Below are positions 1-4,605 of a DNA stretch of 64,000 nt, piece after piece; position 1 is the first letter of the stretch, and each line of letters begins with the position of its first letter. The position numbers and the translations under genes are program-made. The notes under the pieces were generated by a model that was given only the letters and a program-made list of their open reading frames with translations, had not been told where the DNA came from and ran no database searches. Origin of the DNA: Dirinaria sp. TL-2023a (lineage: Eukaryota); the NCBI GenBank assembly GCA_051941275.1, contig JAVEBF010000003.1, positions 1 to 64,000 on the forward strand. The letters are read 5' to 3'.

Positions 1-908
1 AGGTACACAGCGCTCTAATAAGTCCCTTTCAAAAAAAGAAGGAAAAAAAAAAAAAAAAAGGCCGAGCAGGGCTACAGTACAAGACTACAGGCAGGACAAA
101 CGCTGCAAAACAAGCAATGCCAGCCAGATCGATCAAACTATTGGCGTCTCTGGTCGCTGGGGTAGACGTAAAATTGGCCGGTTAATTGACACACACGCAC
201 ACACACACAGAGTGGCCGGATGTCACAAAGGGGCCGCCGGATAGCAGAGTCATAGTTTGGGCCAAATCAAATGGTCCATAATAATTTGCGTCCCCTCGAG
301 AATCCGGAACATATCATAGTTGACTCCCGTCGAAATGGCACCCTGCCCCGTTTCTCCCATCCTACCTTCCGTTAATTCCTCCCTTCCTTGCATCGATGAG
401 TGTCTTTGCTGGCAATAGATATCACTCCTGCTTCCTCCTCTCCTCTCGGATTCGTCTCAACCTTCACCCTGGCCAATCTACCACTACGATAAGCACCGCT
501 GGCACTATTTTGGAAGGATTGATCTGCCTCTGCTGAAGTGGGTCTGAAACACCTTGCCTATGAGGATACTACTCCACCATCATCCTCAGCCTGCTTGCCT
601 GACCTAAGTCTTCGTCCGTCCTATTACTCGATCAATCTCACCTGCATTTGCATTACCTCGGGGTCGATTTTTTTTATCTTCTCAACCACCTCAGCCCGCA
701 CAAGTTTTACGAACAACGCACACGCACACAGCCCAGCGCACAATCTAGGCGTGAGTCAGCTCAGCACCGTGTAATCGCGGACTTTATTTAAGTATATATA
801 ATCCCATAGCCCACGGTGTTTCGACATTTTCTTCACAGACCACCACTGACACTCTACCCAAGATTTCCAACCGCTTCTATGATCACCAGAGGACTCACAT
901 CACTCAAC

Positions 909-974
909 ATGGGACGAGGCGCATACGACACAACCGGCGTACCTAAGCCCAAACCACCACCAAAGCCCAAATAA
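909..974 (+). CDS. Candidate micropeptide MGRGAYDTTGVPKPKPPPKPK (21 aa; 31 aa if the in-frame ATG at 879 is used)
   Basis: ATG in strong CAACATGG context. Flanked by two canonical intron-like segments: 751-862 (GTGAGT..CTGAC..AAG) and 1132-1196 (GTGAGT..GCTAAC..CAG). No convincing longer ORF nearby. Confidence 0.5.
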   Translation: MGRGAYDTTGVPKPKPPPKPK

Positions 975-2417
975 TGCGTGGACGGGGCTTCCGCGTGGCT
1001 CCAAGGTCAACAAGCACACGGCCATCCCATCTCGACCATCACGCCATTGGCTGGGGCCAACGAGCGTCGTGAAGAGTCATATGTGTGTTTCGTTGTTGAT
1101 TTGGACAAGAGTTGATATGAATGCGCGCGAAGTGAGTGGACGCAGCTACCTTACACTACCGACCCTTGGCGAATCATGCTAACGTACGTAATCCAGGCTC
1201 ATACCTTAACCATCCGCACCACTCGTCGTCACCGCCCCTTACTCCATTTTCAGCTTTCGAAATTTTGCCATGTGTCATTTCGGTTTTTCTCGACATCCTA
1301 TAGACTGTACCACCACCCGAGGCCCTTGCCTAGACTGTATCACCACCATTCGTTAGCGATACCCCCGCATTCGCGCTATTGAGCGACTTTCCCCGGCATT
1401 TACAGGTTATGGATTTTTATTGCATCGCTATCAAGAATCATTGCAGGCGTTGGTCAAAAGATGGATCAGGGAAATACCACGATAGATTATTCCGCTTCAC
1501 GGCGACTTGCGACTTTTGGGGGAGGGGTTTAGGACTAATAGGGTTGGAGCTGGTTCTTTTTTGGGGGGCACTTTGCGCGGCTTGGCTTGGTCTTCTGTAG
1601 CGCTGGGAGTTTTTGCAGGCTTCATTGGCTTGAACAAGTGCAGAAGAGGATGCGAGCTGGGCTGGACCCACGTTTTGAGAGCCCTTTGAGGATATCGCGC
1701 TTCCTTTTCCATTAATAGAACATCGTCCAAGACGGGGACTACCTATCTAAACATTCGCCGATGCGTGTCGTCCCACCATTGACCAGGTGACTGATGCAAG
1801 AGTGCCCTTTTCCGGGAAACGGTGATAGCGACCATGATGTGATTCATACTTTTAATTAGGCAGCATCATCGGGCCATTATTATTGACCTGCTCGGGCAAT
1901 GGCTACTTTTCCAGTGTTGTGCCTAAGTGAAGTGCATGTGTGGAGAGATGACATGTTCGGCTTCAAGGTACGGGAAACTGCTTTTTCGCAATTAGCATAC
2001 CTTACCTTATGCCCAGCACCTATGACGAACACTCTGCAGCAGGCGCTTTCCGGGCCCTTCTGGAAGGCGCTAACGATTAGGTAAGGTACGAGTACTGGGA
2101 TGCCTTGAGGTGCCGTTCAAGTCTAAGTACCGAGTCTACCTACCTCCCTACATTGTACTGTACCTTATTCGCCAAGAGCATCACCTTCGCTTTCCACGCA
2201 GAATCATCCAATACGAGGAATCCACCACATCTGAAACCCTGCGTGGCATAAGCGGAACATTTAATTTGTGCTACGTTCTAGAATTCTGCCTGGCTTTCCT
2301 CCCGTGATACAAACTAACTAGTGCTCATCTTCCTCGCGTGGAATCCAGCTGAACAGGCAAGGCTGACGCTATCAACCTCGCTACTGTTACCAACCGGTGC
2401 TGTCCCCATCGGATACG

Positions 2418-3305
2418 ATGGCCGATACTGCTGCTCCACCGCCAAAGCCGAGCAGCAGTGTGAAGCTCGTTCTTCTCGGCGAAGCTGCCGTCGGCAAGGT
2501 AGGAATCTAGGCATCGCCAAATTTGCCCTGTTTGCTGCAGCTCCGTCTCAGACCCGCTGACCTACCATGCACCGCCAGTCCTCCCTCGTTCTTCGCTTCG
2601 TGAACAATGCTTTTCAGGAGAACAAAGAACCCACTATCGGTGGTACGTTACATCCATCACCCTGCTGTACGGATTACTCTCACACCGGCTGATGGTGAAA
2701 CAGCTGCCTTCCTCACTCAAAAATGCAACCTACCGCATCGGACCATCAAATTTGAGATATGGGATACGGCCGGACAGGAACGCTTCGCCTCCCTCGCGCC
2801 GATGTACTACCGGAATGCCCAGTCTGCTCTTGTCGTTTACGACCTTACCAAGCCGTCAAGTCTTGTCAAAGCCCGTCATTGGGTTGCAGAGCTGCAACGG
2901 CAAGCAAGTCCCGGGATTGTTATCGCGTTAGTAGGAAACAAACTTGACCTGACGGACGAAGAAAGCTCGGAAGCGAATACCAGTAACGAACGAGAAGAAC
3001 ACACGGGCACCGAAGCAGGCGAAGGGGACTTGGTGGGCGATGCTCGGAAGATCAGCACCAAAGAAGGCCGCGACTACGCCGAAGAAGAGGGTCTACTTTT
3101 CTTTGAGACGAGTGCGAAGTCCGGTGTCAACGTACAAGAAGTGTTCACCGCTATAGCCAACGCGATTCCTGAGACGCAGATGAAAAGCGCTCGTGGCCCA
3201 GGAGCTACAGGTGGGCCTCAGACAGCCTTAGGCTCAGGCTCAGAGAGAGTCAACCTTGCAGGTCCACGAGGTGAAGCCAGGGCGAAAGATGGCTGTGCAT
3301 GTTGA
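2418..3305 (+). CDS. vps21: Rab5-family (Ypt51/Vps21-like) small GTPase
   Basis: Exons 2418-2498, 2579-2642, 2704-3305 give KLVLLGEAAVGKSS, EPTIGAAF, WDTAGQERF, GNKLD, ETSAK and a C-terminal CAC (CXC prenylation motif). Confidence 0.93.
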
Positions 3306-3854
3306 TACACCTCGCAAAAGAATTGCTTGGTCGTGTCCAGGATTTGGCGAGACAGAAAATTTTGTGTCCATCGTCAGTTCACCTTGTTATTAAAGTCCTT
3401 CTAGCGTGTGATTTGTACTGCGAAGTATGGTATGAATTGGAGCGCAGCATGTATTGGGCTCGCACTGTCTACAATTAACCGGAAAGTCAACGGCCTTTCT
3501 GTTTTACCCTTAGAAGCCGTTCATGAGCTCGAGGTTCGGGACTTGGACAATCGGTAATTGATACTTAAGTCAGGCACGAAACGTGGCTGGTTGACCTTCG
3601 ATCACGACGCTGGCTAACGGTCTCCACGGCGCTGTAGAAAGCACCAACAAATGTTTCTACCAGGATGCGTTGCTCTGCTCTTTCTGTTGCACTGTTCTAA
3701 GTTCACCAGTCCGCGCTGAGCGTGTCTAAGCTGCTAAACATCTTGACTTGCCACAGCTCTAATAAAAAACAACTGACAACAAAAATTAGTGATCGATTAT
3801 CAAGTATTTATATCCGAAAGTCGCGTTTTATGTTCAGTCGGCACCGAGGCACCT

Positions 3855-4605
3855 TCAACCCCGGTAACGCTTGCTTTGCAGGAAGGCCGTTATGTTCGGC
3901 CGCTGTTCTACGGCATCAACAAGCTTTATCAGCCTTTGATAGCCTTTCAACCCCTTCCGGCCCTCCTGGGTCAAATTTTCATCGTGCAGTATCTGATATA
4001 GCACGATGTCCGAGTACGTAAACGTATTACCCACCACGAAGGGACCTCGAATCGAAATTTGTGAGGTTGAAAGGTGTGTTTCCATTGCTTTCAAATAATG
4101 GTTTCGCGCTGTGTCCTGATGCACGGCATACGTTCTTTCTCTGTCTTCACTGAAAAAGGCCTGGACGAACAGCGTCCTCCCTTGGCGAGTATCAGCATCC
4201 TCACGTCATATTCCCAATTGTCGAACGAAGGGGCCTACAGTCGATAGCGATGTCGCACATTGCATCAGCCCAGTACTTCTCATCGTCATTCGCCCCGTCA
4301 TACTTCCCCAACTGCCTCGCAAAATAGCGCAGTATAGCATAGCTTTGGGTTAGAACCTTCCCGTTGAGCTCCACGACGGGGACGTTGGAGGTGGGGTTCA
4401 GCTCGCTGATAATAGACTTCTTGTAGGAAGGATACTCGTCGAAACTGTAGCGCACATCGGTATACGCAATGCCGGCATCTTCCCACAAAAGGCGGACGGT
4501 CTGTCCCCGGCCACGGGAGGCGAAGTCGAAGTAATGGAGCGTGGGAACTCCACCGATGGCCTTGTTGGCAGCCCCGGAGGTCCCGACTGTTTCCCTTGTG
4601 GGCAT
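3855..4605 (-). CDS. Glutathione S-transferase (Tyr-type, sigma-like N-terminus)
   Basis: LHYFDFASRGRGQTVRLLWEDAG, NVPVVE..VLTQSYAILRY and the C-terminal FTYSDIVLYQ motif. One intron 4181-4238 (GTAGGC..GCTGAT..AAG) joins the two ORF-track fragments in frame. Confidence 0.88.

Follow-up and report, generated by a model that had tools for sequence, protein, structure and literature searches.

The window analysed here is a stretch of 64,000 nucleotides from Dirinaria sp. TL-2023a (contig JAVEBF010000003.1, positions 1 to 64,000, forward strand), and near its beginning lies a very short open reading frame (ORF) that is strongly supported, by sequence comparison, as a real gene and not a chance feature. 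The ORF occupies 879..974 (+), has 31 codons followed by TAA and encodes MITRGLTSLNMGRGAYDTTGVPKPKPPPKPK; an upstream in-frame ATG and the codon conservation of its core define it. It sits in an exon at 863..1131 (+), which is followed by an intron at 1132..1196 (+) in the 3′ untranslated region (3′UTR) and by a long 3′ exon at 1197..1737 (+). Upstream are a candidate 5′UTR intron at 751..862 (+), which includes promoter-like elements, and a further conserved region at 297..750 (+), which would be a promoter or else a 5′ exon used in a long isoform. An earlier, sequence-only reading had proposed a spliced micropeptide transcript here, with a long non-coding RNA (lncRNA) as the alternative. The micropeptide proposal is strongly supported: dozens of unrelated fungal contigs have the same frame and bear a clear coding signature in it, RNA contigs cover the locus, and the 3′UTR intron is spliced. 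Selection acts on the amino-acid sequence and not on the RNA.

Relatives of the ORF were reached from its 54-residue stop-to-stop frame, by way of one JGI protein sharing MGRGAYDTTGVPKPKPP, an alignment of those two sequences and a scan of metagenome contigs. The scan produced 212 pattern matches; tblastn confirmed 133 of them, and 80 loci were retained. The core N-x-GRGAYDTTGVPKP is carried by all 80 and by the window, and the peptide core, 13 residues long, is identical across many distant filamentous fungi. An exact ATG-GRGAYD start is found in 67 of the 80 loci, which with the window makes 68 sequences, and in 63 of these the stop falls 20-23 codons past the internal Met, after a Pro/Lys/Arg tail that typically reads PPPKPR and then ends. 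The stop usually lies 6-10 codons beyond the core.

Does this invariance reflect coding selection? Across 45 distinct core segments of 45 nt, variation is seen at 5, 5 and 15 of the 15 sites at codon positions 1, 2 and 3, respectively. Fourfold-degenerate core codons are each represented by 3-4 synonyms, and the core Arg codon is CGN in some loci and AGA in others. The majority-base fraction in the core is 0.99 at codon positions 1 and 2 versus 0.53 at position 3; it is 0.41 at 16-30 nt 5′ of the start, 0.94 at the stop and 0.38 just past it. As a control for ascertainment, only the half of the core that had not been used in finding each locus was scored. Of the 81 sequences (80 loci plus the window), 68 match DTTGVPKP only, and one representative was taken from each of 18 mutually unalignable groups. 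In the GRGAY codons, unused in discovery, the proportion of synonymous differences (pS) is 0.73, which is saturation, and that of nonsynonymous differences (pN) is 0.024, a pN/pS of about 0.03. An ORF of no more than 100 codons is thus seen under purifying selection on its amino acids, and the comparison that the sequence-only reading had suggested as its own check, tblastn followed by a dN/dS-type measure, came out in its favour. Because the silent sites are saturated, contamination of the loci from a single source is excluded.

The peptide is longer than was first supposed. The sequence-only reading began it at the ATG at 909, which has a CAACATGG context, and ended it at the TAA at 972-974; the frame and the stop were right and the start was wrong, since the conserved ORF has 31 codons from 879. 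The 21-codon ORF at 909..974 (+) is the C-terminal part of it, and its ATG is a possible second start, open to leaky scanning. Of the 45 distinct peptides, 35 have an in-frame ATG 10-11 codons before the core, and a semi-conserved I-x-R-E comes after it. Several loci have Ser, Phe, His, Ala or Leu in place of the internal Met, so that the upstream ATG must be used there; together, the conserved upstream ATG and the replaceable internal Met point to 879-974 as the gene product. In the window, ATG 909 has a strong context (AACATGG) and ATG 879 a weak one (TCTATGA, with T at -3). It is plausible that both a 31-residue and a 21-residue product are made.

The peptide is basic and proline-rich. In its canonical form of 30-33 residues it has, by eye and with no signal-peptide predictor applied, a single core and no hydrophobic leader. 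The tail varies in length and composition, and PPP is not universal in it (LPPKPR and QPPKPR are examples); by eye, the tails do not consistently fit an SH3 ligand of class I or class II. Some relatives carry two or three in-frame copies of the core and basic Pro tail, joined by acidic linkers (P0003, P0006, P0021, P0023 and P0107), among which P0006, P0023 and P0107 are from named Xylariales; by eye, the linkers of these multi-copy forms are without KR sites. For comparison, a secreted repeat-peptide (RiPP) precursor of the Kex2-processed type would be recognised by an N-terminal signal peptide and by dibasic sites on both sides of repeated cores. A separate observation concerns six loci (L015, L017, L018, L031, L054 and L057) that keep (M/L)GRGAYDTTGVPKP without the MIxRE start and the Pro/Lys tail, and whose ORFs extend 35-121 codons further, through unrelated sequence.

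The RNA data are contigs that match parts of window 1-3600; they belong to four metatranscriptome runs, labelled lichen metagenome, on one sample of a single study. The contigs cover 297-631, 854/858-1045, 934-1114, 1017-1131 joined to 1197-1519, 1268-1533 and 1524-1737, and those of three of the four runs span 854-1737, so that the locus is transcribed. No contig falls on 1-296, 632-853 or 1738-2160, which in one shallow sample is not evidence of absence. Differences of about 1-3% between contigs and window mark the RNA as that of a close relative. Those on the exon with the small ORF (854/858-1045, 934-1114 and 1017-1131) are collinear with the DNA, and those on the 3′ exon run from 1197 to 1519 or 1533 and from 1524 to 1737. 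The joint from 1131 to 1197, with GT..AG ends, is present in runs X1 and X2; it makes the 65-nt intron real and indicates that the RNA is read from the plus strand. The sequence-only reading had named two junctions to look for: 1131/1197 was found, and 750/863 is not among the joints listed, which in such shallow contigs is again no evidence of absence. Relative to the window, the strain that supplied the RNA has indels of 1 nt at 1553, 1 nt at 1644 and 2 nt at 1719, which exclude coding in that stretch; the ORFs at 1409-1600 (+) and 1497-1712 (-) were ruled out as coding on this ground. The longest ORF in the spliced transcript has 78 codons and is of low complexity, in agreement with the earlier view that no credible long ORF lies nearby.

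How far could all this have been read from the window itself? The signals invoked at the outset (donors, branch points, acceptors, start context and TATA motif) are all where they were said to be. The candidate first intron has GTGAGT at 751-756, CTGAC at 846-850 and AG at 861-862, and the second has GTGAGT at 1132-1137, GCTAAC at 1176-1181 and AG at 1195-1196. The strict pattern GTGAGT..CTRAC..AG occurs six times in the 64 kb, both strands taken together, against 3.8 +/- 2.2 expected from a first-order Markov simulation; three of the six are on the plus strand, and two of those three flank the small ORF. ORFs of at least 21 codons that begin with ATG occur 4.8 times per kb per strand, so the ORF by itself is ordinary. 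The downstream tract, described as pyrimidine-rich and then G/T-rich, is so by its skews: 1200-1399 is C/T-rich (GC skew -0.49/-0.32), and 1500-1699 is G/T-rich (GC skew +0.42/+0.27, AT skew -0.51).

The 3′UTR intron is 65 nt long and begins 157 nt past the TAA, and the RNA joint confirms what had been proposed from the sequence on both its existence and its distance. Among 48 representative loci, 15 have an intron 141-159 nt past the stop, all of them in the clade that has a Rab5-like gene downstream; a second large clade has conserved 3′ blocks without the 3′UTR intron. For nonsense-mediated decay (NMD) that depends on the exon junction complex (EJC), the distance of interest is a spliced intron more than about 50 nt past the stop, and here it is 157 nt. 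A Neurospora study (PMC7746235) states that long 3′UTRs and 3′UTR introns expose transcripts to NMD, as short ORFs in 5′ leaders (upstream ORFs, uORFs) also can; the background remark of the sequence-only reading, that 3′UTR introns can trigger EJC-dependent NMD in Neurospora, fits what is said there of such introns, for which the study cites Zhang and Sachs 2015. With the Neurospora mRNAs that are EJC-dependent NMD targets through a spliced 3′UTR intron, the transcript of the window shares an intron of this kind more than 50 nt past the stop, next to a short ORF and a long 3′UTR. It is a putative target, and the intron is present in only 15 of the 48 representative loci.

The alignment of the nearest related loci, a group of seven (the L002 group, out of which L002 and L007 were aligned individually), covers 334 to about 1720 of the window, with 68% identity, and goes no further. 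The 3′ exon contains many short conserved blocks, and the indels between them are not multiples of three, which marks the blocks as non-coding. Two copies of TAGACTGTAYCACCACC, a UGUA-containing motif, lie at 1301-1317 and 1331-1347 (+); both are conserved in the window's clade, and a related CTGTACA motif is found in the second clade. A small conserved hairpin at 1493..1504 (+) was found with RNAalifold; it has four pairs, two of them compensatory (GC:6/CG:3 and GC:5/AU:4 among nine sequences). Over the nine 3′UTR sequences RNAalifold gave only 7 pairs at -5.1 kcal/mol, which is no extended consensus structure. The 3′ exon at 1197-1737 folds less stably than all 100 of 100 dinucleotide shuffles (z = +2.99), as if single-stranded, and a structured RNA, such as telomerase RNA, was dropped as a candidate on this value.

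The region upstream of the ORF is conserved too; an RNA contig of X1 covers 297-631, and the DNA of the L002 group aligns from 334. A block at 376-443, about 500 nt upstream of the ORF, contains TTGCTGGCAATAGAT and shares 81% identity with the more distant L036 group; it may be the region of a start site or a place where a protein binds. A different conserved block is seen in the second clade at the same distance upstream. Nearer the ORF, GTGAGT is found at -139 to -257 in 27 of 45 representatives, 26 times as GTGAGTCAG, and the donor-bearing representatives have a CTRAC branch point and an AG about 18 nt before the start ATG. Donor, branch and acceptor conserved in this way are the signature of a 5′UTR intron. 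Thus the signals of the intron proposed at 751-862 are present and conserved, and its splicing is not seen in the contigs: those that reach the acceptor at 862/863 start at 854 and 858 and hold the last 9 and 5 bases of 751-862, and 19 loose letters that precede 854 in one contig differ from the exon end proposed at 750.

What else might be conserved here? The donor overlaps TGAGTCA (752..758, no strand assigned), which is present in 27 of 27 donor-bearing representatives and which we take to be a bZIP-type site of the Gcn4/CPC-1/AP-1 consensus. The only variant, GTGACTCAG (L070 and L073; TGACTCA), has a weaker donor and keeps the palindromic bZIP-type site, on the other strand. A TATA box (TATATATAA) follows at 793..801 (+), with TATATAA at 795-801, and is conserved in related loci: all 12 loci of the window's clade plus L010 have TATATA[AT] 25-46 nt past TGAGTCA, and 17 of 26 representatives have it at some point within the element. 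The sequence-only reading had cautioned that a TATA box at about 795 would make its first intron spurious, and the caution was well placed, as both the TATA and the bZIP-type site overlapping the donor are conserved. The likeliest arrangement, judged from these motifs, is an internal TATA promoter that would give a short mRNA, together with an upstream start whose long leader would be spliced at 751-862.

How widely is the gene distributed? A profile of 35 of the small ORFs, run against 1.84 billion representative proteins, gave 230 matches at E<=1e-3, of which 75 reach E<=1e-10. Most bear the motif at their C-terminal end, as would be expected of ORF callers that run on upstream. Two matches, P0114 and P0150, were set aside by eye as unrelated repeat translations. 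Thirty matches were looked up; 17 are in clusters with a species-named member, and all are hypothetical or uncharacterised, one having only a coded id. The classes named are Sordariomycetes, Leotiomycetes and Dothideomycetes; no Eurotiomycetes, Pezizomycetes, Orbiliomycetes, yeasts or Basidiomycota are named among these 30. The Neurospora crassa member is NCU03451, an 84-residue model, and that of Sordaria macrospora is SMACR_12796, with 33 residues. Others are from several Colletotrichum species, Cytospora mali, Coniochaeta ligniaria, Thermothielavioides, Thermothelomyces, Neopestalotiopsis, Xylaria, Rostrohypoxylon, Annulohypoxylon, Pseudogymnoascus and Mytilinidion. The window's closest relatives are lichen metagenome contigs. 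The named members belong to the window's own family, sharing M-I-x-R-E ... N-x-GRGAYDTTGVPKP ... and the Pro/Lys/Arg tail, the better profile E-values being 1e-11 to 1e-16; they differ in being automatic annotations of 30-304 residues whose models run on upstream or downstream.

Databases and literature add little to these names. Pfam has no family for the window peptide and gives three stray single-member matches (E 0.024-0.5) among the 35 members; Rfam gives no covariance-model match at E<=1 in window 1-4000, and the ESM Atlas no usable match. No searchable text of a paper contains the peptide strings or the identifiers NCU03451 and SMACR_12796, and NCU03451 was not found in the supplements of PMC7746235 and PMC10578600 or in the first 12 of 48 files of PMC10191625. 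A general literature search on micropeptides of filamentous fungi turned up nothing relevant among titles and abstract openings. The family so far consists only of unnamed hypothetical proteins with inconsistent models, and the role of the peptide is not described in searchable text.

How might such a gene work? We propose that 879-974 is a genuine, translated small gene in the family of NCU03451 and SMACR_12796. Its mRNA would extend from about 854 to 1737, with the 65-nt 3′UTR intron removed, and a longer isoform may begin near 300. Ribosomes would make the 31-residue peptide from ATG 879, and leaky scanning to the stronger ATG 909 probably adds the 21-residue form. The level of the peptide would be set by the TATA promoter with its bZIP-type site, and the mRNA, having a short ORF, a 3′UTR of about 700 nt and, in this clade, a 3′UTR intron, would be a candidate NMD target. 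The free peptide is rather likely to be the active product, with the invariant segment serving as a linear motif that docks on a cellular partner conserved to the same degree. A free peptide is favoured because the module is duplicated in frame in some lineages, because there is no conserved downstream ORF and because the length of the tail varies. Action in trans would also suit the facts that the other ORFs of the transcript are unconserved and that the downstream gene differs between clades.

The locus is, in this respect, like a micropeptide gene on an otherwise non-coding-looking RNA. Animal genes of the tarsal-less/pri and myoregulin type encode micropeptides on RNAs that were annotated as non-coding, and the resemblance lies in a very short ORF on a long, non-coding-looking transcript and in a motif that is sometimes present in several copies. 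They belong to another kingdom and have no sequence relation to the fungal family, and in contrast to tarsal-less/pri the multiple copies in fungi are within one ORF, not in separate ORFs. To our knowledge, very few genes for micropeptides have been described in fungi, and ORFs of 30 codons mostly escape genome annotation.

Several points weigh against the proposal of a free, active peptide. The loci were found by peptide patterns, so that the conservation is partly ascertainment, and this is controlled only in the unused half of the core. Five loci (L015, L017, L018, L054 and L057) have a different tail and are without the upstream Met. All RNA support is from the contigs of one sample, from which starts, ends, strand and level are not readable. 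AlphaFold2, given the 35-sequence alignment, found no fold and no secondary structure (predicted template modelling score, pTM, 0.17). Finally, the extreme invariance, the Pro-rich C-terminus beside the stop and the long conserved UTRs fit a cis-acting arrest peptide as well.

Might the peptide then act only while it is being made? In a cis-acting small ORF, which we consider possible and yet doubtful, the invariant nascent peptide and its Pro-rich tail would stall the ribosome, depending for example on eIF5A, polyamines or amino-acid supply, and the stall would govern the ORF's own RNA through NMD, no-go decay or access to 3′UTR elements, leaving the free peptide without a role. Conserved-peptide uORFs and arrest peptides include the arginine attenuator peptide of arg-2/CPA1 in fungi and the proline-ending regulatory uORFs that depend on eIF5A or polyamines. 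Like the window ORF they have some 20-30 codons, a peptide rather than an RNA that is conserved very far, and a Pro-rich C-terminus near the stop. A core that stays invariant despite saturated silent sites would fit contact with the slowly evolving ribosome; it adjoins a tail of two to five prolines, the stop follows 6-10 codons on and is TAA in 15 of the 18 groups, and the UTRs are long and contain conserved blocks. In 15 of 48 representatives the stop and the spliced 3′UTR intron keep a distance of 141-159 nt, the Gcn4-type site that we presume in the promoter region would also be in character, and according to PMC7746235, 3′UTR introns and long 3′UTRs trigger NMD in Neurospora.

Such uORFs, however, control the translation of a conserved main ORF, in whose mRNA leader they sit. 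The window ORF is in no such leader, there is no conserved second ORF in its transcript, and no other clear output lies downstream. By eye, the window peptide also has no sequence likeness to peptides of the arginine attenuator type. The variable length and composition of the tail, with PPP not universal, leave no fixed geometry at the stop, multi-copy in-frame versions exist, and the 3′UTR intron is absent from the second large clade. Could arrest do without a main ORF? A more elaborate form of the idea, which we regard as rather unlikely, would make the locus a stand-alone sensor RNA. Its arrest module, the nascent peptide with its Pro tail, would read eIF5A, polyamine or amino-acid status; the promoter would be of the Gcn4/CPC-1 type; the stall would decide whether a built-in NMD target decays or persists; and the RNA that persists would act through the conserved 3′ blocks. 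Such a sensor would operate in at least three classes of Pezizomycotina and in the fungi of the lichen-metagenome contigs.

It is very unlikely that the ORF is instead a uORF of the Rab5-like gene 1.5 kb downstream on the same strand, reached through a long read-through isoform. The arrangement is frequent enough: among 40 loci with at least 2400 nt of downstream sequence, 24 have a Rab5-like gene in the same orientation, and its main exon begins 1.5-2.1 kb past the core. However, the gene downstream is ARPC5-like in 7 of the 40 and neither of these in 9, DNA similarity to the nearest relatives stops at about 1720, short of the Rab5 leader, and no contig joins the two units, with the reservation that contigs may miss rare forms.

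A first exon of a longer protein, formed by unrecognised splicing as in the 84-residue model of NCU03451, is more improbable still, though the models P0015, P0016, P0087 and P0096 do begin with the motif and then run on. The contigs are collinear over 854-1131, with no joint within or just past the ORF, and the stop is at the same place in 63 of 68 sequences. By eye the run-on parts share nothing with one another, the small ORFs have no Pfam family, and most profile matches carry the motif C-terminally. Least credible of all is the lncRNA alternative, or a DNA element that contains the ORF by chance: ORFs as small as this are indeed common and the transcript does have conserved non-coding blocks, but an lncRNA should have no ORF under coding selection, and here the variation is at third positions only, Arg switches between CGN and AGA, conservation is bounded by the start and the stop, and pN/pS is very low in codons free of ascertainment, all of which contradict it.

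A 13-residue core left unchanged across lineages in which every silent position has turned over is an exceptional constraint. Constraint of this kind is usually confined to parts that touch the core machinery of the cell. If the peptide is a docking motif, or the ORF a translational sensor, then it would be a new piece of conserved fungal cell biology. Two genetic model fungi have the gene, Neurospora crassa (NCU03451) and Sordaria macrospora (SMACR_12796), which makes its role testable. We also note that a true micropeptide gene was recognisable here from splice signals and start-codon context alone.

The surroundings of the gene deserve brief mention. The small GTPase gene, Rab5-like by eye, is at 2160-3562 (+), with its ATG at 2418 and a C-terminal CAC; contig joints at 2496>2577 and 2641>2703 confirm both of its introns, and an acidic insert precedes its C-terminal part. 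Two RNA haplotypes, with mismatch counts about five-fold apart, are seen over 2919-3293. In the window's clade the gene for ARPC5 (p16-Arc) precedes the small ORF, and in the second clade it follows it. In L036 and its relatives it is about 4.2-4.8 kb upstream of the small ORF, and among 16 upstream ORFs from six loci it was the only one with a Pfam match (L036, about 4.5 kb upstream); the roughly 4 kb between ARPC5 and the small ORF contain no ORF with a Pfam match. On the minus strand, at 3855-4605, ORFs at 4201-4605 and 3855-4085 resemble by eye a glutathione S-transferase with an intron between its N- and C-terminal halves. At the very start of the window, upstream of the conserved region, are an A-rich tract at 30-60 and a (CA)n-like microsatellite at 186-210.

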